Shown: positions 21,501-47,730 of the stretch, piece by piece
Layout of the letters: each line of letters opens with the position of its first letter
How positions within the stretch are numbered: the first letter of the stretch is position 1
Source of the DNA: Tricharina praecox
Lineage: Eukaryota
DNA length: 64,000 bases
Direction of reading: 5' to 3'
Assembly: GCF_024521635.1 (NCBI RefSeq)
Contig: NW_026250405.1
Coordinates: 806,001 to 870,000, forward strand
Made by a program: the position numbers and the translations under genes
The notes under the pieces: generated by a model
Told to the model about the DNA's origin: nothing
Database searches by the model: none
Seen by the model: only the letters and a program-made list of their open reading frames with translations

Positions 21501-23794
21501 AGGGAAGGAAGGGAACGGGTTGTCACGTCTTCTCACTCGTGCTCGAGCGAGGGCGAGAAGGCAATGGTGGAACACTACCTGGTCTAGTCCGCTCTGCACC
21601 GCTCCGGCGAATTCGGTCCATGGGGGGAGAGGGAGGGGATAATGGTCGCGGTGGATGCTCTATCTAGGAATCTCGACAGGCGCCCGGCTGGAAAAAAAAA
21701 TCCAACCAGGGGGGGGGGGGTTATCTCTGGAATTGAGTGGTGGTGGCGGCGGGCCGCAAAGATCATCGTTTACTATCGACGGAGATCATGTCCGTACATA
21801 GTGATATAGGCAAGTACTTGCCTAGATATGCAATGAATGCCTGCTGGCGGCTTGCTTACTCACTCACTTGTTCACTCATACCCGGACTGGACTCGATGTC
21901 CTTATCTGCTGTGTAGCAGTGCGAGTCGGCTCCTCCGACGGTTTTTGCGGATGGATGGATGGGTGAAGAAATGGCTTGACGTATGTAGAGTACTCTAGTA
22001 GGGCACTAGCAAGTGAACGGTACGGAACGGTCAGGTTTCCGTAGGGGTGTGCAGCGTAACCCGGTGCAGTTACCCAAGTTTCCATAGTGGTTGCATGACG
22101 CATCACTCGACACGATGTTGTCACGCCCGAAAAGTGAGGCGAAAGCACGTACATACTAGCCGACGACCTAACTGCTGGATGGGTTGTACCGTCTCACCGA
22201 CCTCACCATTGTACACTGCAGATTGTACGTAGACAGACAGAAGCTTGGCCGACCGACACTGCAGGCGGGGCCCAGACTCATCCTGCACCTCTCCTCCCTC
22301 GCACCCTACCTATATCAACTTGCAGGATATACCTCCTCAAGCCCTATACTATATAACCCTCAGTATGCAGGGCCTCGATCCCACTTCTCCGCCAAATCTT
22401 GATCTCGCCAAAAGCAAATCCGCGACCCAACAAGACACGCCCCCCCCCCCCCCCCCCCCCAGCTCGGCCTTCCGTTGAGAGAGCACGGCATACCAAGTAG
22501 GTACTCTACAGTGCCTGGCTGTGGTCAACGCACTCTATCGCGAACACGGTGGGCCCGGAGGCATGGAACCTTTTTTTTCCTTTCGGACTCCCTCCATCCC
22601 TCCCTTTACTCTACAGCTTCTCCGCGAAGGTGCCACAGCGTCGGGTGCTTTGCTAGTAGGCCGTCTCTGGATCTATGTATGTATCTATGATACATACGGG
22701 CGATAATACGGAGCAGGTGTATATAGAGTACGTGCGGTACGTAGATGGGTACTTATACCCCCCTCACCCCCTCACCCCCGTGAGCTGCGCGACAGACATG
22801 GAGACACCGAGACTCCACTTCCACCGCAGACAGGCAGGGTGGCACCGGATCCGCTGCTGTGCTACGCACGCACGCACGGAACAGGCACAGGCACGGCCCA
22901 GCCAGAACTCCACCAGAGGACACTTTGTTGTCGCTGTAGGTCCTTCCCTCCGATCTGGGTGGCCGGATCGATGTACAATACATACCTGCGGTGACGGGGT
23001 TTCGGGACGCTGGTGGGGGGAGGGGCGTGTGCTGCCCCAGCCTCGCGGCGGCGGCGGCGGAGGCGTCGTCGTCGGCTTCCGTTTTGGGCGGCGTGGATAG
23101 ATGGATGGATTGTCCGATGCGGCGATGTTGGCGTCAACCCCCGACTGATCTGCGTGGTTCGGCCAACAGGGCTAGAACTCTCGGTGCGTCGGGCTGTACG
23201 GATTTGTGGCGAGCAGCTATTCGATCGAGCATGCTGAGAAGCGCTGGTGCTGTGGGACGGGGCTGGAAACTCATATGTACATACATACAATGTACATTCC
23301 TTGAGGTCATCTGACCAGTGACCACCCGTCTCCGTCCAGACCGCACGAAGCAAGGAATAGCCTCGAGTGATACCTTGGGATGTGGCCCTACCCGCTCACT
23401 CACTCAGAAACTGAAACCTGCTCCATGATATCCATTTTGGAATGTCCTTCGACGGGTAATCGTAGCTAAGCATCTTGTGTGGGAATTCTCTACGCTCGCC
23501 ACGGTCCGGACGGGAGGAATGACTGCAATCTGGAATACCTACAACCTGTAACTAGCCTGCAGGACGATTCCTCCTCCTACACCACCACCACCACCACCAC
23601 CACCCTAACTTCTATGAGTTATAACTTCCATGCATATATACAGCAGACACATCCGATCTATCCTATAGCCTCTACCTACCTAGTACCTAGGGCCCTATTG
23701 ATGTCCGATATCCGATGTCAGGAACTGCACAGTGCACAGTGCAAACCTTCCCGCAGATTCACACGGATTCACAGAAGGCGGATGCTCACGGATT

Positions 23795-24059
23795 CAGTGT
23801 TCTATCATACATAGTCCAGTCCAGTCCGTCGGTCCAGTCCATCCGTCTCGAGCCTCGGACTGGACTGGACTGGACTGGACTGGACTGTATCTTAGCAGTC
23901 CGTCTGGGAGCGGTGTTGGGACGGACTACATATTTTTACGCAGTCCGTCTATGGGGCCGGAATGGACCAGATCTTGGCAGTCTGAACTGGACTGGACGGA
24001 CTGGACGGACTGGACGGACTAAACGGACTACAGTCCGGACCAGACTATGTCGAACACTG
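23795..24059. mobile_element. Non-autonomous hAT-type MITE (family A, 265 bp) with 8-bp TSD CACGGATT
   Basis: Left end CAGTGTTCTA..CATAGTC and right end GACTATGTCGAACACTG form an imperfect TIR. CACGGATT is present at 23787-23794 and 24060-24067. Dense GGACT/AGTCC subterminal repeats. Confidence 0.9.
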
Positions 24060-24850
24060 CACGGATTCCTATTCCTATGTATCCTGGCTGAGGAGTAGTA
24101 ACTACCTAGTCCGTCCGTCCGTCCGCCCGTCGGGACAGCCGGCCATATCTGGCCGGGGGCTTAGAAGGTTGTCGTCCACTTCCTCGTCCACACGCCGAGT
24201 GACCTACTAGTAGGGGGTCCTGGGACCAGGTGTCTTTATGGAGGAGGAGGACTACTCTACAGGCTGCAGAGAACGGGGAACCAGGGCGGCCGTCAGGATG
24301 TCGAGTGATACAATATGATCCTACCTACAGGCTACAGTAGTAACAATCTACAGCATTCACGCGGTTACGGTACTCGCGGTTGCTCGCCTCCAGTTACAAA
24401 GCCAAAAAGCCACAAAGCCAGTCCGTTTTCCAGACTTCCAGACTTCCAGAATTCCAATAGGGTACTCCACTCTCGAGGAATCGGTCATTACCTATAGTAC
24501 TGTATGTATCTAGAGCCAGGAAGGGACGGATCAACCATGGAGAGATCATGAACCTGAACCTGAACCTTTAGCAGATGCTAGATACTAGATAATGCCTAGC
24601 AGTATTGGTATCTACTCATATCAACTCATATCAACTCATATCAACTCATATCATAGCACTCTACTCTACAACAGCCTACAGGCAATTTTTTCCGTTTCGT
24701 TGTTTCCCGTTCGACGGTGCGCGATCGAGGCAATGGCTTTCCCCTCACTGTTGTTACCGTATGTACAAGTACACCAACTCACCAACCCACCAAACAGCAT
24801 ACCATTCCCACACTCGCCCGCCATCCACCATCGCCGGCGGCGGCGGAAAG

Positions 24851-27017
24851 CTACTTAATGAAGCTCTCCATATCCTTCAGGCCCCTCTTGAAGCCGTGTT
24901 CAAACTACGCCGATTGTCAGTGTATACATCCCCACAGGTATCCCTATACTCGGGCTGGGGTTAGGGCCGGACTTACCTCCCACAGGAACTGACTTCCGAA
25001 ACCCGCCGTTTCGGCCACATGTTCCCTGAGCCTCTTTCCCGACCATAGGTTGACGAAACCAATCGTGGCGCCCTTCCTCGCGGACTCCCAAAACGTCAGA
25101 GCATCCCAGAACCCGACATCGTATCCCGCCGCGAACCGGTAGTGCTCCATGTTCTGTCCGGGGGCGTTCTGGTTCCAGTACTCCGCGTGTTCCTCGATAG
25201 CGATAGTTCTGATTCTCGCCTGCTCGCGCTTCGCCTCCGCGGCGATCTCGGCGACTCGCTGCTCGGCCAGCGTGAGGCCGACGGGTGGGACGACGTTGCC
25301 CTTGCGGCTCTGCTCGACGAAGCCCCATTCGCCGCCGTCCATCCACGCCATCTTCGCGGTCCAGAAGAAGGCGCCGCCGTTGACCGGCTTCAGCGTTTGC
25401 TCCCAGCGCTGCGACTGCGCGATGCCGAATTGCCGCACGAGGTCGGGCCGTGCCTCCGCCGAGACTTTGGCCCACGACTCGCCGTCGAGCACGCAGCTGT
25501 ACTCGCCGATCACAGTGCCCACTTCCTTGTCGTTGTAGCTGGCGATGTCGCTGCCTTCTTTGGCGATTGTCGCGATGATCTCCGCCGGCGAGCGGTTCTT
25601 GTTGTACGCGTCGAAGCAGTAGTATTTGTGGATGTCGATTACCAAGGGAGGAGAGATGAGCGGGTTGCTACGGCGGGCGTTGTTCTTGCCCACAGCGTAC
25701 TGGGATGTCCGTCAGCATTCGGAAGGGTGAGAGGAGCGGGTGTGAAAACAAACATCGAGGGCAGGAACACTGTTCCACGCATCGCTGAGATAGACCGGCA
25801 ATGTCGAGTCGATTGCCGCAATTGCACCGAGCGTACCATCGTACCAAGTCCACATTCCGCGATCACCAGCGCCAGTGATGGCCTCATTGACCAGCTGCAG
25901 TCCGATAACCCAGACCTTCATGATGGGATCCTGTGCGACGGCCCTCGAGATAGCCACCAGCACCTCTGTCGCGCGCTGCCGGAACCAATCATTCTCCCAG
26001 AACTCACTTTTTTTCGAATCTATTCCGGCCATGGCACAGGTGAGTATGTAGGTACTTATTCACCCCCGCTCCACACCAGGTAAGGGCGGCGACATACCAG
26101 TGCCGGAATGCTCATCCGTGTTTGCGCCACCGGGAAGCGCGTGCAGATCCAAGAGCACACCGATGCCGTGCTCGGCTGCCGCCTGCACGTACCGGCGCAC
26201 CCACATCCACGCATTCTCGTACACGGCCGCATACGGCTCGAACGCGGTGCCACCGCAGTAGTGCGGGCCGAGCGTGAACCAGCCAATGGGCAGCCGGACG
26301 GAGGTGACCTTCGCTGTGTCCCGCAGGAACACCCAGTCGGCGGGTGTCATCGCGGAAGCCCAGTGCTGGTAGATACAAATCCCGAGTCAACGATGGACGG
26401 GGAGCGGGAGTGTAGCTGCTACTGACCTCTTCCCATTTGGCCCGTGCGGATTCTATTCCGTGGGCCTCCACCCATGCGCTCACGGCGGAGAGCTCGCTGC
26501 CGCCCTTTGCCGTGTCGAGGAACATTCCCGGGAACAGCCATCGCTCGAGCACAAACACGGAGCCAATGTTTGCGCCGTGATGAGTGCGGTACCGGTTGAT
26601 TTCGGGGACTGTTGGTGGGCCCATGCGGGGCTGAACCTGTGCCTGAGCCTGAGCTTGAGCTTGAGGCGGAGGCGGTATGCTCGGCGGAGGTGGGGGGAAC
26701 TGCGCATGTGGTGGCGAGGCTGTATGTAACTGTTGCTGTTGTGGCGGCGGAGGCGGTGGTGGCTGGTACTGGTTCTGCTGGGTTTGCTGTCCGAATTGTT
26801 GCTGTCCGAATTGTTGCTGCTGCTGAGCATGAGGCTGCTGCGCATGAGGTTGCTGAGCATGAGGCTGTTGGAACTGTTGCTGGTGCTGCTGTTGCTGCTG
26901 CGGCTGGGCAACTGGCTGGGGATGGTGGCCGCTGCTGGCGCCATGGTCATCGAAGGATATTCCGAGGCGCTCGTTGAGCTTGAACTTCTTATCCAACCTG
27001 TCAAAGTATTTCTTCAT
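24851..27017 (-). CDS. Glycoside hydrolase family 5, glucan 1,3-beta-glucosidase-like (YBR056W/exg3-type), no signal peptide, Q/P-rich N-terminus; exons 27017-26427, 26365-26098, 26019-25754, 25699-24977, 24904-24851
   Basis: Motifs HGANIGSVFVLERWL, SVRLPIGWF, GVLLDLHALPGGAN, LQLVNEA (acid/base Glu), VIDIHKYY, VIGEYS (nucleophile Glu) and GAFFWT. Four canonical introns join the ORF-track fragments. Confidence 0.9.
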
Positions 27018-28078
27018 GAGGAGCGACGCAGTCCAGTCGGGAGTTCAATCGCGGGAGATGTCGCAGTGGGTGTTTGTATTTGTATGAATAAGTAGCCGTA
27101 TCAAGGGTCTGCAAGAGGGAGGGGGGAAGGTGGGCGGAATGGATTGTGGTGACGATGCCGAGGGACATGACAATGCCACTGTGGGAGGCGGGGTGCATAA
27201 AGTACTCGCGTTCCATACAGTGCTCTAATACTAATGTGATGTGCATCAGAACGCTCATGCAGTGCAGGGGATTGACTTGGTATGCATACAGGCGGTTTGG
27301 CCGTTGTTGTTGCTTGCGGCCAAGTGTTTGGAGCAGCTGTTGGACGATCCGCAATGTTTCTGATTGGCGGCTGCATGGGCAAACACCCGGTGCCGATTTC
27401 CCAGAGTGGACGGTGGACAGTGGACGCTGCGGATAAATCGTGAGTGCTATTTACTAGTAGTACCGGTACCGAAGACAGTGGATTCTCCAGCTAAACCGTG
27501 CCGATAGACCCTGAGAGCTCCAGATAAATCTTACATAAGTATGATCATACCTGATGCCATTCCCGACGCCCACAGCGAGAAAGAAACGTATAGATATAGT
27601 ACCGACACGAATGCAAGACTCCACAATTCCGCCATGTCTGCCTACTACAATCCAGTCATCGATAGCGTAGATACCGTGGTCCTGATCGAGATCTGTCGCA
27701 TCCACCAACCCGTTCGTAACCGCCCGCACCTGCAAGGTGGTAAGTAAACCACCACCACCACCAGCTCCGCCAGCTCCCAACAATAAGTTCGCTAATTCTC
27801 CAACAGCTATCTGGATATCGATAATGGAGCTTTGCAACTGGCCTAGCGCGAGTCACACGGCAGCCACCGAGCCCAGCGCTGCACTGCTGCATTCTCGCCC
27901 GTTTCAAAATTCAACGCGATAACTAGAGTGCCGTACCTACCGTACCTCTACCTGTTCCAACACTCCAATTCCCCCGGGCCCGTAGAAAGCTCCCCACTGT
28001 CCACATCGCCTCACCCCCTCCCCTCCAACCCGCCCTCTCCAGCCGCCCGCCCAACATCAACTACAACAACAAAGCACA

Positions 28079-38941: not shown

Positions 38942-41900
38942 AGCTTTCTGGCCATGTAACGTCGTATCGAATGTTCTTCGCTGGGAGCGGATGGGGGGTG
39001 GGACCGCCCCCCGTACATATATTCCGCCGCTGCACTGGGTCGGAACGGAAAAGTGGGATTTTATCCACCCGCAAGAGTCCGCCTCACCGACCGACAATAT
39101 GGGTCGGAGAAAGGAGCGGGAGTTGGAATCACCATCTCGTCGGTATGTAGGTACAAGGTCCCGCCCAGCGGAACGTCTGCGGTGGTAGATGGGTGCGCGG
39201 ATTGCATAAGGAGTGTGGCCAAGAGCTATGAACCTGGTTCTCTTACTCTGTATGTCGCCCCCATACATGGCCCTCCCTCAGAGGAGGTTTTCTGGAGTTT
39301 AGTCCGAGATGCAGCTGCTTCCTCTGGTACATATCGTAGAAACCACCACACCGGTGCGAGGGGATCTGCCTGTCTACGTGCACTGGGCTACCCATAGGTT
39401 TGCAACACCAATGCGGGGGGATTTCATGTACTCCTTTGTCGCACCAGTCGACAAGCCTCGGTTTGGGGGCCAGGACGGGGAACGACGTAGTGATCCCCCA
39501 AGGATCCCCCTATGCATAATACATACATAAGTGCATATATGCCAGTGCTAGCCAGCATTGCGACCTCCTGGATTGAATCCATGGGGAGACGAACGCACAT
39601 CTCCCGGGCGTTGGCAAGCTAAGAAAGCAAGACAGAGGGGCAAGTGTCCAGTGTCCACGGATTATATGCCAATTTGCAGGCAGGACGCACACATGTGCGG
39701 TGCAAAGGGCGGGACGAAGTTCCAACCATGGAGGTTGTGGCCGGTATATAAATTTTGCTATTGAGTGGTGGAATTCATGGTGTGATGGATGCCTATTGGC
39801 CGCATAAAACTACCTACATACTTCGAGACATCTCAGGATGGTTGCACCGGACCGATCCCGGTAATATCAGCTGGAGAGTACTATGTATTAGTAGTAGAGT
39901 GTGGTTGGTTTCCTAGGTTTCCTTCATCTGTGGCTAAAATCGACCAGAAGGCCTCGTATTTCCACGACAAGCTGGGGGCTAAAGCGAAAACCGCTCGAGC
40001 TGAGAGGGAAGAAATGTGGCGGCCTTGGACTCTTGGAGCCATCGGACCGTCCTACTCCCATCTGTAAACACCGCTAACTATATACCCAGAGGGGAGGTTT
40101 TGCGCTTAGGGAGGATCCGTCGAATAAGGTTCGTTAGCGGCAATTGCTAGCGTACCTAGGTCTCAATTGCAGATTTAGCCACCACATATCAGCTAAGGAG
40201 AGATGGAGTATGTAGCATACCGGTAACGTGTAGTGCACAGCTCCGTGATATGGAGTGGTACATATACAGTTCCCGGTGGACGTTGTGAATTTTTGTAGCT
40301 TTGTAGCTTTGTAGCTTTGTGGTGTGTGGCGCGTGGCTAAAGTGGCCCGTCGGCCATCAGCTCAGTTGAGAAAGTCCAGATCCCAGGGAAAAACAGGCAA
40401 AGCGATCGATTGCGAGGTTGAAGCGATATGGGGTATCCACTTCACTGCCAGCGGTAACTAACGCAGAGTCACCGTCTCACAGACCTCGAAACAAGCGCGG
40501 ACCGATCGTGAACGAGACCGAGCCGTCCAGCAAACCACACGCCACAGCAGCATTGTAGCATTTCGTGTCTTCGAAATGGGACGAGAAAGTCCATCCGCCG
40601 GATTGCGCATGTAAACACTCACCCCAAGTAACCAGGCAGCTTCCTGCCGAGATAGCCATCTTATGTAACAGCGTGCCTTTGCATTGCAGGCTGCGCTTCG
40701 TATATCGATGCCCGTTGCCTATTCTCCAACGGTAGGCACAATCGCGAACGTTTCCTCTCCCGAGCGGCTACAGAGTGCACACACCAATGAGGAAACCGCC
40801 GTGGCGCCGGTGCGGCGCGGTAGATGGTTGCAGCTTGCAGCCGCGATGTCACCTTTCAAGGTCCATTTATTGCCTCAACCCGAATCCAACTGCCAGATAG
40901 ACATACCCTTGAGCTTTCACTGGGGATGGCAATGCACGGATTTAAGTCGACCTTCCCCAACGCGGCAGCTGCCAGCTCTCGTCCATTGACTCCAAAGGGT
41001 TTTCCTGGGATGCTGTGTTATGCGGCATGGGGGTTTCGAAGAAATAATGCCAAGCTCACTTCATCTGCTGGCCTGTAGCTCGCTTCCGGGCTTATTCCGA
41101 CCTCCCGTAACGGAATACCGACTCTTCACATGTACATATGTAGTGTAAATAGAGTGCGTACACTCAGCATGTGTGTATACCATCGGTGGCGGCCCAGTCG
41201 CAGCATAGGACCTGCTCGAAAGGTACGGTAAGCAATGGCATTTCACGAAGAAGTAGGTACATACCTACCGCTCCAGGTGGTGCGAAGGACTTGCGACGCT
41301 TCACCAGATTATAACCAGCATTAGTTATAGTAGTATCTACTGTAGTTAGATGCAGATCTGCCGAAAGCTTCACCGCACTGGAGTTGACACTTACCTCGCC
41401 ACCGTCGCACAGTGCTTGCGAACAACATGTACGTACCATTTGCCGGGAGTGTCTTGAGAAGAAAATGATCTGACATGTCTGTATCGAGACCCCACATTTC
41501 AGTTGTCAGTTTGACGCCCGGTTGTGGTTAACATAGGTGCTATACATACCAAGCCGAATGGCAATCGCGAACCACCGTTGATTCCGGCAGGTGAAAATGT
41601 ACAATCTACATACGAACGGGGTATGTAGATAGATGGGTTTCAGTTTGAAAATAGAGTATCCAACACCCGAGGCGAGCTAGCAGCGACACATGTAGGTATG
41701 TATCGCTGGGCTGCCCCCGAGTCGGTCTGAGACAGCAGGAAACGGGGAAATACACGAGAAGAAGAAGTACCTGAGACAATATTGGCCTTTCCTTCGTTAT
41801 CCACTTGCTCGGAACCACTTGCTGACCGGTAACCATCTAACTAGAGGCTATTTTCGGCCAGACTACGATCGAATGTATGTACATAGGTAGGTACAAATAT

Positions 41901-43817
41901 TGCAGATCAGATCGTCCTTCCGTGCTCGATTTTCCGGAGTCCGGGCCGTATGTACTGGTACTGCGCAGCACACAGACCCCGACATCGGGATACAGGAGCA
42001 CACACCAACCTTCACAGCTTCCGCCTTGGATCCGGAAGGTATACCGACGCACTGGAATCCGACATCTGACCTGCCGTACGCGTTTCCCTCAGAGATTCGA
42101 CGTCCAAGCACCACCACCAGCCCTCTGAACCAACTGCTTCTGAAACAACGCAGGTATGCATCCAATCCAAAAACTGTCGCAACTTTGTTTGCATGTGCAA
42201 GTCGTGAGAGATGTGCCCCGCGTTTCTTGGATGAATTGGATGAGAGTGCCGGCGTGGCTCGCTGAGGGGAACAGAAAGGCTGAGATGTTTTAACCTCGAG
42301 AATTCCAGACACAGAGTGGAAGACCTCCCGCCGATGTATGTGCATGGGCTTTGTTCGCATGGTACCTGATGGGAAAGGGTGGCTTCCTGTAGATTCAGTA
42401 GATTCTGGCGGATGTCGGCGATCTCTGACCAATGAATCAAGCAACTTGTCGACTGCCAGCTCTTGCCTGTGATCTTTAGTTCTGGGCCGGAAGCACAGGT
42501 CTCCTAAGGGTGCTAGACAACGCCACGCGCGTGCGATACTTGCAAGTCTTGATGACATATATTTCCCGAGTGCGGTCACATATAGGTAGTGTTCGTCTAG
42601 GCCTGCGGACGTCGAATTAGTTATCGGTCGTGTTGACGAGCAGTGGCAGGCTCGCCAGACTGTCAGGAGTCATCTGGTAGCAAAGTACACTGAGACAGAA
42701 GTAGACTGATAGTGCGTCGAGGCCAGAATAAGCTTGAAAGTGATGACTGGTGTCAGTTGTACCAATTTTGGTTGCTGAGTTGTGTTGTGGTGGTAATGGG
42801 AGTTGAAGATACTCACTCACTCGGGTCGGGGTGCCGGGTGGTCCCCCGTGTGAGAATGGTATGTGTGAGTCGCCATTGTCCTTGGTGCCGTCTCGATGAG
42901 ATGGGAAGACGCTTGCCCGAAAAGATCAGGCCGTAACTCCTTTAGGAAACGACCCAGAAAGCACTCCTGGAGCAGGCCGAGTGACAATTACGAGTCGGTA
43001 TGTACTCTACACACGACTCTTTAAGTAGCCATCTCTACCTATCAAAACCCACTTCTCATACTGCTACCGACTAGATTACTCCCACCGAGGAACTAGACAT
43101 CTCTCCTCTAATTCCAAGCTTCCCAGATTACACTTCATTCCATCATGGAGCCGACCGGCCGCCCGTCCGGTCGTCGCGGACTCGCGTTTCCGGAGCGACG
43201 GGTCCAGATTACAGACATGCCTCCCTTCCATCCGGGCCGAGGTGAACGTGGATCATTCCTTCACAAGATGCTTATCGGTAAGTTCTCGCCCAAGGACGTT
43301 CCCGAATGAATGGAGCAGGTTTCAGTTTCAGTTTCAGTTTCCCGGTGAGCGGGTAGAATCATAAAGTATCACTCGCGGATAGCTTCAAGCGGCTTGGAAA
43401 AAGACGTGGGAGTGGGCAAGGATCGCTTCCAGATCAGATCCGAGGCGTTTTTCGCAGACGAACGGTGCAGCTGTGCCTTCTGCTGCGCTTCTTTCGGTGC
43501 AATACGCCCCCCGAGTGACGGACGTGAGCGTCGATCCCATCGTGTCCATCAACGCTGGGTATGTGCCGTCCAGCTACGGTAGGGGTAGGAATACGGCATC
43601 TTCTGGGGGTCGCTTCAGCGGGTATATCGGAATACTGGGGAGAACGGCTACAACACGGCACGCAGTGTCGTACCTAGATAGTCGATTGATCCCACGGACG
43701 TATCACGTCCTCTATACGTACGTACAACCGGAGCACACATCGCATGATAGTTTGATACGGATGTCTGAGGGGTTCGACTCGTATCTACACAGTTGAATCT
43801 CAGCATTTGGAGAATCA

Positions 43818-44136
43818 ACCGGTTTTCTCAAACTTCCGGCGGCCCGTAATTGAGGATACATGCAGCGGCCGTGTCCCAAGGGCCTGAGGGCTCCGACCTC
43901 GGCCCATCCCCTCAAAAGAAGCATTCTGAGCTATGAAAAAGTTCCAAAGCTGTTGCTATAAGCTATAAGCTATAAGCCCCCGCACACATCTCACTCGAGT
44001 CCACACTTGAGTTGCCTGCGGAGAGGTAAAGATGTTCCATTTCCCCACGTATCCATGAGTTTACTAGTACAGGATACACGCATGCATACACACACACACA
44101 CGATAGGCGGCCATTCGTACCAGCCAAACAGCGCAC
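43818..44136 (+). repeat. Dispersed direct repeat, copy 2 (homologous to 5-342)
   Basis: Same colinear blocks as copy 1, with a shorter (CA)n and a local GCTATAA tandem expansion. Confidence 0.92.
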
Positions 44137-44189
44137 AGCGACACGACAGAACTACACCACCCCTCTACCTAACCACTTTCTCGGGACCC

Positions 44190-45593
44190 TCATACCGCCT
44201 GCCCGTCAGCTTCATCTCCTCTTCGCACGTCCGTGTAATCTCGCCACATATCCTCTGCGATTTGATCCCTCAATTCCGCCATATGTCTTCCTCCGTTCCC
44301 CTGTACCGCTTCACTTTCCTCCTCTACACCCGTATCCGTTTCTGCATCTATTTCTATACTTTCTTCCCGTGAACTGTTTCCATCTCCATCGTGTACTTCT
44401 ACTTCCACCCCAGTTCCCCTCCATCTATCCAGCTCACTCGCATCGTTGTTTTTTCGAATGAAATTGTGCAGAGCGGTAAGGGCAAAGACCAGCTTGACCC
44501 GAGTGGCGTGGGGATACTCAGCAGGAGCGAGAAGGATGCGGAACCGCCGCTTCAAGATTTCAAAGATGGGTTCGACACCGCTCCGTAATTGCGCATGACG
44601 GAGGTTGAACAGCTCCTCCTTGTTCTGTGGTGGGTTTTGTTGTGGTTGATGATGATAACGGACACTTCGGTAGGGTGGGAGAAAGCCCGGCCTCAAGCCG
44701 TGGCCAGCATTTATTAGATAGTAGCTTCCAGGCAGTACCACAAGGTCACCACCACCCAAAGCAGCTTGAAGCTCTCGATCATCATCGTGTACCGATCCTT
44801 CCCAACCATCAGGCAAAACATGGCAGAACAATTCGTCAAAGATACACATTCCAACAACGTTCTGGCCAACGAGGTCTCCTTTGCGGTTTCGGTTTCGATA
44901 TCGTACTTCATGTCTTCCGTCCGGCACGTGTACATCGGCATGATTATGGGTACTACCGTCTGCTGGTGCTGCTGCTACACCAAGGCAATCTTTGAAGTAC
45001 GGAAAAATTTCCGGATCGTTACGGATACGTGGAGGAGTGGTCGTAGGAGTAGGCTGGCTTGCGGCGGCTGCAGCAGCAGCAGCTGGCTGCTTGACAACAG
45101 CCGAGTAAAGCGCCGCCATCGCGTCGAGAACCTTTTTGAAGGCGCGGCTGACGGTGTCGCCGCTCCGTCGAAACTGTTTCTGTGCCGCACGGTTGGACGC
45201 GTTCTCGCCGACGATTTTGAGAAAGATTGCGAGCTGCTCTTCGACGGACATGTGCCGCGTCGGTTGCAGGTGGCCGTGCTCCATACACCAGTCGCGGAGA
45301 GCGAGAAATGTGGCTAGAGGCATGCGGAAGACGTCGAGAATCCGTTCGTCATCGCCGCAGGATAGAAGCTCTTCCACGTACTCGGAACCGCTCGATACAG
45401 GGGTGTGCGGCGGAGGTTCGTCGTAAATAGGAGCTGCCCATTCGCCAACAAGAGCTGCAACGGCAAACAATACTTGTGGGGTGAGGAAGTTGCAACCGCT
45501 GGACATTGTGGATGTTGTTGTACGGATTCGGGAAGCTGGTGATGAATGCCAGCATAGGTAGCCTATTTCAGTGATCGGATTGTCCACCACCAT
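44190..45593 (-). CDS. PIF/Harbinger (HARBI1-like, DDE_Tnp_4) transposase-derived protein; intact ORF with a degenerate catalytic site (alternative start ATG 45506)
   Basis: Motifs FRMPLATF, SVEEQLAIFL, FRRSGDTVSRAF, PYFKDCLG..DGSTH, RKG..QNV, GWEGSVHD, YYLINAGH, PYRSVRYH, ELFNLRHAQLR..VEPIF.ILKRRF, ALHNFIR and LRDQIAEDMW. Confidence 0.9.
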   Translation of the reverse strand: MVVDNPITEIGYLCWHSSPASRIRTTTSTMSSGCNFLTPQVLFAVAALVGEWAAPIYDEPPPHTPVSSGSEYVEELLSCGDDERILDVFRMPLATFLALRDWCMEHGHLQPTRHMSVEEQLAIFLKIVGENASNRAAQKQFRRSGDTVSRAFKKVLDAMAALYSAVVKQPAAAAAAAASQPTPTTTPPRIRNDPEIFPYFKDCLGVAAAPADGSTHNHADVHVPDGRHEVRYRNRNRKGDLVGQNVVGMCIFDELFCHVLPDGWEGSVHDDDRELQAALGGGDLVVLPGSYYLINAGHGLRPGFLPPYRSVRYHHQPQQNPPQNKEELFNLRHAQLRSGVEPIFEILKRRFRILLAPAEYPHATRVKLVFALTALHNFIRKNNDASELDRWRGTGVEVEVHDGDGNSSREESIEIDAETDTGVEEESEAVQGNGGRHMAELRDQIAEDMWRDYTDVRRGDEADGQAV

Positions 45594-45721
45594 TGAAATT
45601 TGCTCGCTTAAGCTGTGAACTCTATGTAACTACCAGCAGATCGTCTGCGGGATGACGTATCCGCGCCACTACCCAACTCATATAGTTACCGCCTCCGCCG
45701 GCTCATAGCTGCTGCGCAACC

Positions 45722-46810
45722 ATGGTCCTCCCACGAATCCCATACACGGCGCCGTTCCCTCCTCCGACGCTCTACCCCGCGCACGCGACCTCGCTCCCCG
45801 CCGCGATCGCCGTACTCCACGCCTTCCTCTCGCACCCATCGCACCGCAAAACCGCACTGATCAGCGGCGCCGGGATCTCCGTCGCCAGCGGGCTGCGGGA
45901 CTACCGGGGGACTTCCGGCACCTACCGCCTCAACCAACACTACCGGCCCATCTTCTTCCACGAATTCGCCAGCCAGCACGCCTCACGACAGCGCTACTGG
46001 GCGCGCAGCTTCGTCGGCTGGCCGGCGACCGCCGCCGCGCGCCCCAACGCCGCGCACCGCGCCGTCTACCAGCTGCGCGCCCACGGCGCACTGTGCGGCG
46101 TGGTCACGCAGAACGTTGATAGCCTTCACGGCGTCGATGGTGGCGTGCTAGAGCTGCACGGGTTCCTGCGCGCGGTCGCGTGTCTGGCTTGTAAGACCGC
46201 CATCAAGAGGGATGTGTGGCAGGCCGAGCTGGAAAGGTTGAATCCGCTGTGGGCGGGGATACTGCAAGACGGCGGCGGCGAGAAGCTGCGCATGAACGCC
46301 GATGGAGATGTCGACCTCCCCAGCGCGGATTATACACAGTTCAGGTATCCGCCGTGTCCCGTATGTCTTGCAGAGGATAGAGGAAGGACGGTCAGGGTGG
46401 ATCAGGATGGGGGGATGGAGGCCGGTGGTGACGGCGTGAAGGCGGTGGTCAAACCGTGTGTTACCTTCTTTGGGGAGAGTGTGGACCCAGAGGTTAAGGT
46501 GGCGGCGGAACGCCTGGTGGAGGAGGCGGATGCGGTGTTGGTTGTTGGGAGTAGTCTGGCTACGTATTCGGCGTGGAGGTTAGTCAGGGATGCGGAGAGG
46601 GCGGGGAAGGGGGTGGCGGTGGTGAATATCGGCGGTGTGAGGGGTGAAGATGCGTTCTTTGGACAAAAGAGAGCTGCTGGAGAGAGGGTAAGGCTTGAGG
46701 TGGACGCGGCTGGGGTCTTGGCGGGCGTCGTGGAGGCGTTTGGTGGGAAGTCGGAGCCGGCGAAGGAACAGCCGTATCTGGCGGCCAGCTGGACGGGGGT
46801 GGGAGGGTGA
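45722..46810 (+). CDS. NAD-dependent protein deacylase, class II sirtuin (SIRT4-like)
   Basis: Motifs SGAGISVASGLRDYRG, RQRYWARS, PNAAH, VTQNVDSLH, LELHG, two CxxC zinc pairs, NADGDVDL, KPCVTFFGE and VVGSSL. Single exon. Confidence 0.93.
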   Translation: MVLPRIPYTAPFPPPTLYPAHATSLPAAIAVLHAFLSHPSHRKTALISGAGISVASGLRDYRGTSGTYRLNQHYRPIFFHEFASQHASRQRYWARSFVGWPATAAARPNAAHRAVYQLRAHGALCGVVTQNVDSLHGVDGGVLELHGFLRAVACLACKTAIKRDVWQAELERLNPLWAGILQDGGGEKLRMNADGDVDLPSADYTQFRYPPCPVCLAEDRGRTVRVDQDGGMEAGGDGVKAVVKPCVTFFGESVDPEVKVAAERLVEEADAVLVVGSSLATYSAWRLVRDAERAGKGVAVVNIGGVRGEDAFFGQKRAAGERVRLEVDAAGVLAGVVEAFGGKSEPAKEQPYLAASWTGVGG

Positions 46811-47224
46811 GGATGTCCTTGGGACATATCTACAGCAGGTATTGTGCATACATAATTTAGAAGGAGGACGAATACATATCGAGATTGTTGTAGTACATAA
46901 AAAAGGAAAAAAAGACCGGTATATCAAAGAAGGACAAAGCTGGCGGATCTTTTGATCAAGGCTGATACCTATCGGCAAGTCCTCGGATGTTAGTTATACG
47001 CAGCTCTCGGAATTCGGCTCGGTGTCGCATTACTGCTCGACACATGGAGCGGACGCAAATTAGCCCAGAATCCAAATGGTAGAGCGATATCGGGAGAGCA
47101 ACATATAGCAAAGACCCGGCGGCTTACCGATAGGTGTTGGGCCTTGATCGAAAGAATTGACATGATGTGAATGATGTTGCAGAGGGGTGGGTGTAAATAT
47201 ATGAAGGCTGGCCCTCCGTGGTTC

Positions 47225-47730
47225 AAGTGTTCTACATAGTCCGGCGCAGACTGCAGTCCGGACGGACTGGATGGGGTCAGTCTAGTCCCGTCCACAGCTT
47301 TTGTAGGACGGCCTAAAAATAGGTAGTCCGTCCCATCCGCTATTTTGCTGGACGGGTCGGACTACATACAGTCGACTGCAGTCCAGAAATTGCCCAATAT
47401 TTCAGCACTTATCCCGCTTGTAGGTGCAAATATTTTTACTTCATTTCGCGCTCATGCTATGTCTAAGTAGGTAATTCGCCCATAGAGATGCCTCAAATAC
47501 CGGTAACAATCAGCATGAGTCTTCTCGACGCTCTCAATTTTTCCCGCTGCATAGCATTCTGCGCTTTGATAATTCATACTTGCTTAGCAGTCGACTGCAG
47601 TCCATCCCGTCCGAACCCACCGGCAGACCAGTCCGTCTAGACGAAGCCTCTAGACGGACTAGATGTAAGTAGTCCAGTCCCGTCCATATATCCGGACGGA
47701 CTGGACTGGACTAGGTATACTAGGGAATAA
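47225..47730. mobile_element. Longer (about 505 bp), diverged family A MITE copy in the opposite orientation
   Basis: Starts AAGTGTTCTACATAGTCC and contains TAAAAATAGGTAGTCCGTCCCA (reverse complement of the 23907-23928 segment, one mismatch). Ends GACGGACTGGACTGGACTAGGTAT with a degenerate terminus. AT-richer core at about 47390-47585. No TSD recognisable. Confidence 0.78.

Follow-up and report, generated by a model that had tools for sequence, protein, structure and literature searches.

The gene and its family

A 64,000-nucleotide stretch of contig NW_026250405.1 of Tricharina praecox (the window) carries an open reading frame (ORF) that derives from a PIF/Harbinger transposase. The ORF copy in the window, here called WIN, is a genuine gene that occupies one locus and is transcribed, and its host is a Pezizomycete of Pyronemataceae-like affinity. 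In its longest form, WIN runs on the minus strand from ATG to stop at 44190..45593 and encodes 467 amino acids (aa). Its active site is degenerate, its frame is open and its closest kin are broken transposon copies. The evidence leans towards a young, lineage-restricted domestication in which selection maintains the protein without its catalysis.

WIN is a PIF/Harbinger-type (DDE_Tnp_4) protein. The Pfam profile DDE_Tnp_4 (PF13359) matched with E=6.5e-11 and 42.5 bits (cut-off 24.8), at profile positions 29-158 only. Four relatives reached 81-97 bits from profile position 1 or 2 to 158; the score of WIN is halved and positions 1-28 are lost. Homologues at E<=1e-3 numbered 116. A preliminary description of this DNA had reported an uninterrupted 467-aa ORF with Harbinger motifs. 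The ORF was found as described, and alignment with 15, then 57 homologues recovered all motifs quoted there: GVAAAPADGSTH, RYRNRNRKG, VLPDGWEGSVHDDDR, YYLINAGH, SGVEPIFE and a poly-Ala run. A sequence search of solved structures gave 0 matches at E<=1. A Foldseek search of the PDB with the AlphaFold2 (AF2) model of WIN gave none at E<=0.001; the weak top rows (E>=1.4) were integrases and transposases and were not used as evidence. PF26138 (DUF8040) did not match the N-terminus, with a local profile that also misses relatives carrying PF26138 in the precomputed table.

The true start is probably Met-30 rather than the first ATG. All four nearest relatives with an N-terminus (P0001, P0237, P0238 and P0239; P denotes protein relatives and L metagenome loci) start opposite this residue. 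A contig of the RNA-like run X1 ends at 45568, between Met-1 and Met-30, and the AF2 confidence (predicted local distance difference test, pLDDT) is below 50 for residues 1-34. The alignment thus points to the ATG at 45504-45506 and to a probable coding sequence (CDS) of 438 aa at 44190..45506 on the minus strand.

A catalytic site that is no longer canonical

The triad of WIN is D212, N295 and E341 (D-N-E) in place of an intact DDE. The second aspartate is present in 93% of 71 relatives. Its replacement by asparagine, already noted in the preliminary description, was confirmed as N295 (codon AAT, 44709..44711, minus strand); no difference of the variant in metagenome run X4 is listed at this codon. 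The first aspartate D212 (GAC, 44958..44960, minus strand) is kept but displaced, according to alignment, DNA and AF2 model. Four residues are inserted before it (residues 207-210) and extra residues follow it (S214 and D221-V222 in the pairwise alignment, at 215-217 instead in the MAFFT alignment). The pLDDT is below 50 at residues 211-219. The third catalytic residue E341 (GAA, 44571..44573, minus strand) is kept, and the next residue is P342 instead of the family arginine. This R342P change is common to WIN and P0246, a partial protein of Tricharina praecox.

At 8 of the 44 columns with at least 85% conservation, WIN is off the consensus (A206V, D295N, L315H, E317P, N338S, R342P, G345E and Q365R), which is among the six highest counts in the 72 sequences compared. 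Judged by its sequence, WIN cannot be a canonical transposase and has presumably lost the ability to catalyse transposition, because the triad reads D-N-E, insertions split the first-Asp motif and a proline replaces the arginine beside the glutamate. Repeat-induced point mutation was considered as the source of the D-to-N change and set aside, since the GAT-to-AAT context is, as judged by eye, not TpG/CpA.

Insertions that keep the frame

The 5-6 or more in-frame indels of the preliminary description turned out to be an underestimate. Compared pairwise with relatives of 73-79% identity, WIN shows at least 13 indel events, every one in frame (the shared 4/1/2 insertions were counted once). Insertions of 6, 4, 4, 1 and 2 aa separate WIN from P0237 (130/178 identical). 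Relative to P0243 (100/127 identical), insertions of 4, 1, 2, 1, 2, 1, 1, 1, 1 and 1 aa were found together with a 4-aa deletion, and relative to P0246 (87/110 identical) one 5-aa insertion and two 1-aa deletions. Nearly all indels lie within residues 175-325, most of them in catalytic motifs.

DNA and alignments define an insertion-rich segment at residues of about 175-271 (44780..45071, minus strand). It holds expansions of the poly-Ala/TPTT linker, the insertions GV-AAAP-ADG-S-TH and HA-DV-H, an RN duplication and the single-residue insertions GD-L-VGQ, LP-D-GWEGS and H-D-DDR. In the DNA, simple repeats of triplets or hexamers account for about half of the indels: (GCN)8, (GCA)3, CGAAAC x2, (GAT)3 and (GGT)3. 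With an assumed and generous 1/3 per indel, 13 in-frame indels would have a chance of about 6e-7, (1/3)^13; this argument is weakened because triplet and hexamer slippage keeps the frame by mechanism. A neutral simulation on the gene's own DNA gave a probability of no stop of 0.053 at K=0.075 and of 0.019 at K=0.1.

Relatives of WIN

Near-length matches (P0001-3, from short metagenome contigs) share 56-60% identity at most. Named matches are basidiomycete, rust, oomycete and plant ALP1-like or HARBI1-like proteins with 31-38% identity. A closer clade was found among shorter proteins, with 73-79% identity over the aligned parts. Many of these short relatives are fragments in which the homologous part ends in an unrelated tail, and 4 of 27 run on in a different frame of the WIN DNA (P0247, P0299, P0300 and P0302). 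P0245 has a 22-aa deletion and an E-to-K change, P0247 has a D-to-G change, and P0243 has the D-to-N change of WIN and none of its insertions. These sequences are remains of a decaying, probably multi-copy transposon family in Pyronemataceae-like fungi.

In the tree of the DDE part, WIN falls in a clade with P0243, P0245, P0247, P0285, P0298 and P0276 (Shimodaira-Hasegawa-like approximate likelihood ratio test, SH-aLRT, 99). Its end branch of 0.27 is the longest, compared with 0-0.17 for its clade mates; overall, its DDE-core branch exceeds those of its relatives about threefold. WIN is the most diverged member of its clade and the only full-length open one seen. The decayed family copies (P0237-P0302) resemble WIN by clade membership, by the D-to-N change in P0243 and by the R-to-P change in P0246. 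They differ in being fragments, frameshifted or deleted, and in lacking the insertions of WIN, with the exception of P0238; WIN itself is open over its full length, has diverged further and has RNA-like contigs across it.

In the tree of the N-terminal half, P0238 is the sister of WIN (SH-aLRT 98). Before ADG, where WIN has its Ala-rich insertion, P0238 has one as well; it also has the additional residues after DGT/HA, and its Pro/Thr linker is extended to a smaller degree. Two or three insertion sites are common to both proteins. P0238 is open across all 202 residues seen and homologous to its last residue. In the C-terminal part, the T. praecox protein P0246 is the sister of WIN (SH-aLRT 91), with which it shares VEPIF and an acidic tail.

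An alternative minus-strand frame across the DDE core (44714-44941) stays open over 75 codons in the window, and two frameshifted relatives, P0302 and P0285, enter the same frame. Its openness is probably compositional.

Rates by domain and predicted structure

The protein domains of WIN do not evolve alike. In the DDE core, unique substitutions of WIN and P0001 were counted with six outgroups as 21:7, 24:9, 18:4, 21:7, 21:4 and 17:9 (p<0.05 in five of six), an excess of about threefold in WIN. The same counts for the N-terminal region were 9:9, 8:5, 9:4, 4:5, 12:4 and 15:8 (p<0.05 in none). The ratio of substitutions at conserved to variable sites agrees: in the DDE core it was 0.57-0.60 for WIN versus 0.03-0.25 in relatives; in the N-terminal region 0.48 versus 0.22-0.58 and in the C-terminal region 0.53 versus 0.47-0.82, within the family range. 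Differences between WIN and P0237 in the N-terminal half avoid conserved sites (0.53, p=0.009); in the DDE part, avoidance was not significant for differences to P0243 (0.66, p=0.11). Relaxation is concentrated in the DDE core, and the N-terminal region evolves at about the rate of the family.

Rates and AF2 model delimit an N-terminal helical region at residues of about 60-170 (45084..45416, minus strand), which resembles a helix-turn-helix (HTH), has no indels and reaches a pLDDT of 94-98. The AF2 model, built with 58 sequences, has a pLDDT of 80.5 and a predicted template modelling score (pTM) of 0.79. Residues 70-170 and the C-terminal helix are modelled with high confidence; it is low at residues 171-180, 211-240 and 261-270, which are insertion sites. 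The model is no independent evidence, because it leans on the alignment.

Transcription and variation

Five runs were found to contain the sequence, none of them recorded as RNA, and contig cover was examined in four: X1 and X2, presumed to be RNA (RNA-like) and from two studies, and X3 and X4, from DNA or metagenomes. Expression, which the preliminary description had listed as a check, was seen in both RNA-like runs. One 1539-nt contig of X1 covers 44033..45568 with 0 differences and no joint. In X2, two contigs (44215-45220 and 45195-46848) cover the ORF region, likewise with no difference in the ORF. Contigs of both runs skip three GT..AG introns of a gene at 48.9-49.7 kb (48963/49025, 49052/49113 and 49148/49205), and because of these spliced joints in a neighbouring gene X1 and X2 were treated as RNA-derived. 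The ORF locus is transcribed and, at contig level, expressed as a host gene; the transcribed strand is presumably that of the ORF. The region 40334-44007 has no X1 or X2 cover, while X3 and X4 cover is present.

The variant in X4 differs from the window at 3 of 939 positions in the ORF and at 15 of 928 positions in the non-coding DNA beside it (Fisher p=0.004). In the coding sequence of neighbouring host genes, 5 of 1108 positions differ.

Element ends, partner gene and copy number

The preliminary description had found neither a terminal inverted repeat (TIR) with target site duplication (TSD) nor an adjacent Myb/SANT ORF; a scan of repeat pairs at 40-50 kb and a comparison of the flanking ORFs with Pfam agreed with it. 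None of the 25 longest of 122 inverted-repeat pairs at 40-50 kb brackets the ORF alone. From the probable start to the next gene, a sirtuin, there are 215 bp only, and no TIR or TSD was found there or downstream; very short or decayed ends could escape detection. Myb/SANT matches at E<=0.1 were found in 0 of 45 stop-to-stop ORFs of at least 50 aa at 40.8-46.1 kb and in 0 of 32 at 22.7-27.0 kb; at E<=1e-4 there were none among 115 larger ORFs of the window. A tblastn search revealed no second WIN copy in the 64-kb window. Metagenome (X3) and RNA-like contigs pass unbranched from both flanks into the ORF, with no near-identical copy in the contigs. A transposase-derived CDS has here lost the hallmarks of an element, as is typical of domesticated genes.

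Two candidates for missing parts were rejected. An element split by an inversion, with its other half at 23.5-24.85 kb, found no Myb or other domain there, and the junction matches were at chance level (17 nt, E about 1). The ORF 41863-42558 was considered as a degenerate partner; it had no Pfam match, and its Atlas recognition was low, with a top score of 0.84 to bacterial hypothetical proteins.

Host genes and rearrangement

The neighbour of WIN at 45722..46810 (plus strand) is, by Pfam and protein matches, a SIR2-family (sirtuin-4-like) gene. It is an ordinary host gene and served as synteny anchor. Its best named matches are all from Pezizomycetes: Sphaerosporella brunnea (61%), Trichophaea (58%), Pyronema (57%), Morchella (55%) and Tuber (48-50%). 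The 215-bp region between the probable start of WIN and the sirtuin (45507..45721) is a divergent intergenic region, in which homology to the metagenome locus L001 starts at 45712. The window is gene-dense fungal DNA and also encodes an NSUN5-like methyltransferase, a fungal-rhodopsin-domain protein, an EF-hand mitochondrial carrier, a synoviolin-like RING ligase, a DUF3237 protein and an F-box protein.

With the sirtuin as query, metagenomes yielded L001 and L002 (both 76% identical) and L005 (46%). Downstream, L001 is collinear with the window (sirtuin, DUF3237 protein, carrier). Upstream, gene X (24849..27038, minus strand), which abuts the sirtuin in L001, is 20.9 kb away from it in the window and inverted. 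This indicates an inversion-like rearrangement of about 20.9 kb relative to L001 (24.85-45.7 kb; L001 3300-4392). One breakpoint lies 10-120 bp from the sirtuin ATG, exactly at the site of the Harbinger gene.

Domestication and its alternatives

Several observations together favour domestication. The catalytic site is dead, the branch with the open frame is the longest in a clade of otherwise broken members, the sister lineage has the disrupted motif too, relaxation is domain-specific and RNA-like contigs cover the ORF. At least 13 indels and an accelerated branch have left the frame intact, while relatives with less divergence already contain frameshifts. Selection rather than luck probably holds it. 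Of the domestication proposed in the preliminary description, lost catalysis, missing ends and partner, RNA-like cover and the kept frame were upheld; a syntenic or full-length orthologue was not found, and the kin are ordinary decaying transposons.

In a domesticated protein, the N-terminal HTH region and the conserved C-terminal helix (RDQIAEDMWRDY) may have retained their binding to DNA or to partner proteins. The RNase-H-like core, now dead, would be a mere scaffold, with loops that tolerate triplet-repeat insertions. Such an adaptor-like protein would resemble plant and animal Harbinger-derived cofactors in its working. A fuller scenario is possible rather than probable: WIN might be the first domestication of a Harbinger transposase seen in a fungus, and a young one. 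A Pezizomycete lineage comprising the window organism and the source of P0238 would keep a dead protein with constrained DNA-binding and C-terminal modules. Its active site would change by frame-preserving triplet-repeat insertions, a 21-kb inversion would have wired it to the sirtuin promoter, and its siblings in related fungi would be rotting.

The main alternative is an expressed transposon relic, an immobilised family copy without host function that is open by luck or recent death and transcribed via the bidirectional promoter of the sirtuin. We consider this less likely than domestication. It is still a serious rival, because no orthologue was found, the rest of the family is ordinary transposon DNA in decay and the ORF was picked as open. 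Several observations weigh for a relic or against domestication. The relatives are frameshifted, deleted or catalytically mutated, and WIN could be one more copy of a decaying, probably multi-copy family that happens to be open. Protein searches returned no full-length relative above 60% identity or with the same set of changes. The choice of an ORF for being open introduces an ascertainment bias, and half of the indels are of the slippage-prone repeat type that stays in frame by mechanism. Changes in the DDE core strike conserved sites almost like variable ones (0.57-0.66, not significantly <1), and even the N-terminal constraint is weak in the comparison with P0238 (0.61, p=0.046).

Synteny also speaks for a relic. 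The preliminary description had suggested searching for orthologues beside the sirtuin in related species, and in this point it was partly contradicted. In L001, the closest relative with DNA, a different gene occupies the site: a 240-bp spacer upstream of the sirtuin is followed by the inverted homologue of gene X (24849-27038) and then by a homologue of 28.1-28.4 kb. No Harbinger-like sequence was found by tblastn in L001 (a 15.2-kb locus), L002 and L005. The site is a rearrangement breakpoint with dispersed repeats adjoining. Because the breakpoint is at that very spot, an orthologue of WIN could lie elsewhere in the genome of L001.

The transcript and variation data have their own weak points. 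The X2 contig 45195-46848 bridges into the sirtuin. Antisense or read-through RNA is therefore possible, as the contigs do not give the strand. Of the three X4 differences in the ORF, two are non-synonymous and one is synonymous, too few as a proxy for the ratio of non-synonymous to synonymous rates (dN/dS). The depth of the X4 contigs is 3.6-6, so that single differences may be errors. The WIN protein is absent from a collection of 5.8 billion proteins, in which no match (lengths 30-818 aa) exceeded 74% identity. The sirtuin from the same 1.89-Mb contig is present there at 100%. The Harbinger gene seems not to have been called in the source annotation. With the neighbour in the collection and WIN missing, repeat masking perhaps hides such genes.

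A relic explains other features poorly. WIN is the most diverged protein of its clade and yet the only full-length open member seen. All of its indels, at least 13, are in frame, and a frame without stop has a probability of about 0.02-0.05 at the excess divergence. In the sister P0238, the insertion-laden region is open as well, no acceleration is seen in the N-terminal region of WIN, and X4 variation is lower in the ORF than in the flanks.

Regulation at the level of the element is improbable. Here, a dead transposase without host function would modulate active Harbinger copies or miniature inverted-repeat transposable elements (MITEs) in a dominant-negative or titrating manner. The kept N- and C-terminal regions, the lost catalysis and the abundance of the family in related fungi would suit this role, as would a polymorphic multi-copy MITE-like insert 1.5 kb away (47.24-47.72 kb). 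However, that element is of no assigned type, the window revealed neither an active copy nor a TIR family or Myb partner, and selection at the element level cannot maintain an immobile single copy.

A still-working transposase of an unusual Harbinger lineage, with ends and partner gene outside what was recognised, is close to refuted: D212 and E341 are kept and the overall fold is predicted (pLDDT 80.5 with the 58-sequence alignment), but D295N stands against it (in the rice element Ping, a single change in the catalytic triad drastically reduced transposition, according to an excerpt of PMC4671723), as do the insertions flanking D212 at pLDDT <50, the lack of TIRs and TSD in the 215 bp before the sirtuin or downstream, the lack of a Myb ORF among the flanking ORFs and the lack of near-identical copies in the contigs.

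Comparison with known Harbinger-derived genes

Plants, vertebrates and insects all have known host genes that derive from Harbinger. The DDE triad of HARBI1 is intact. Arabidopsis ALP1 and ALP2, accessory proteins of PRC2, are like WIN in their origin from a PIF/Harbinger nuclease or transposase, their mutated triad and the absence of element ends. ALP1 has DGA for DDE; it is reported to be conserved throughout the land plants, and its partner complex is defined (PMC4671723). WIN differs by having no demonstrated orthologue at a conserved site. Its closest kin are fungal transposon copies, and WIN would for this reason be an independent and much younger event than ALP1.

HARBI1 (with NAIF1), plant HDP1/HDP2 and insect DPLG are host genes from Harbinger transposases (PMC9392472, PMC9710019 and PMC5339849), an origin that they share with the candidate WIN. 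These proteins act or were co-domesticated with a Myb-like partner; WIN has no Myb/SANT ORF nearby. The hallmarks of PIF/Harbinger elements, as summarised in an excerpt of PMC4482050, are a TWA TSD, two ORFs, TIRs mostly below 60 bp and a length of about 4.1 kb. Autonomous elements have, like WIN, a DDE_Tnp_4 domain and an N-terminal HTH region, with relatives in fungi, plants and oomycetes. In contrast to them, WIN has a D-N-E triad, a disrupted first motif, neither TIR and TSD nor second ORF, and a distance of only 215 bp to the next host gene.

Full-text literature searching, with supplements outside that search, returned no fungal Harbinger domestication. A young fungal case, if true, would make early steps visible (loss of catalysis, relaxed core, retained binding modules, promoter capture) while the decaying siblings are still present. 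In the old plant and animal cases, these steps are erased. As a mere relic, WIN would be an ordinary fossil of a transposon.

Repeats in the window

Self-comparison revealed a dispersed repeat with (CA)n at 43813..44136, 54 nt from the stop of the ORF and 78% identical to positions 1-342 of the window. It was tried as an element end and rejected; only the two direct copies contain its terminal 17-mer, and no inverted partner was found. Both repeat copies are located just 3' of minus-strand genes, one beside the Harbinger ORF and the other beside a ribonuclease ORF (459-1064). The copy near WIN overlaps the transcribed 3' stretch, and the X1 contig runs into it. The region of about 4.6 kb at 39400-44030 is without recognisable domain and holds repeats and the 231-aa ORF (41863-42558), which has no family match.

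An inverted pair (23358-23534 and 43203-43381; 189 nt, 69% identity) has its arms near opposite sides of the inverted block. It could have served as a substrate for recombination or have nothing to do with the inversion.

Beyond the sirtuin, a GGACGGACTGG-rich repeat at 47240-47720 lies between 34-nt direct repeats (47261-47294 and 47653-47686). Both soil metagenome runs have contigs that join 47272 to 47669 with 11 other letters between, at a summed depth of up to 147. The repeat looks like a polymorphic, multi-copy MITE-like insert. Short matches to it are located at 23807-23830 and 23917-23946.

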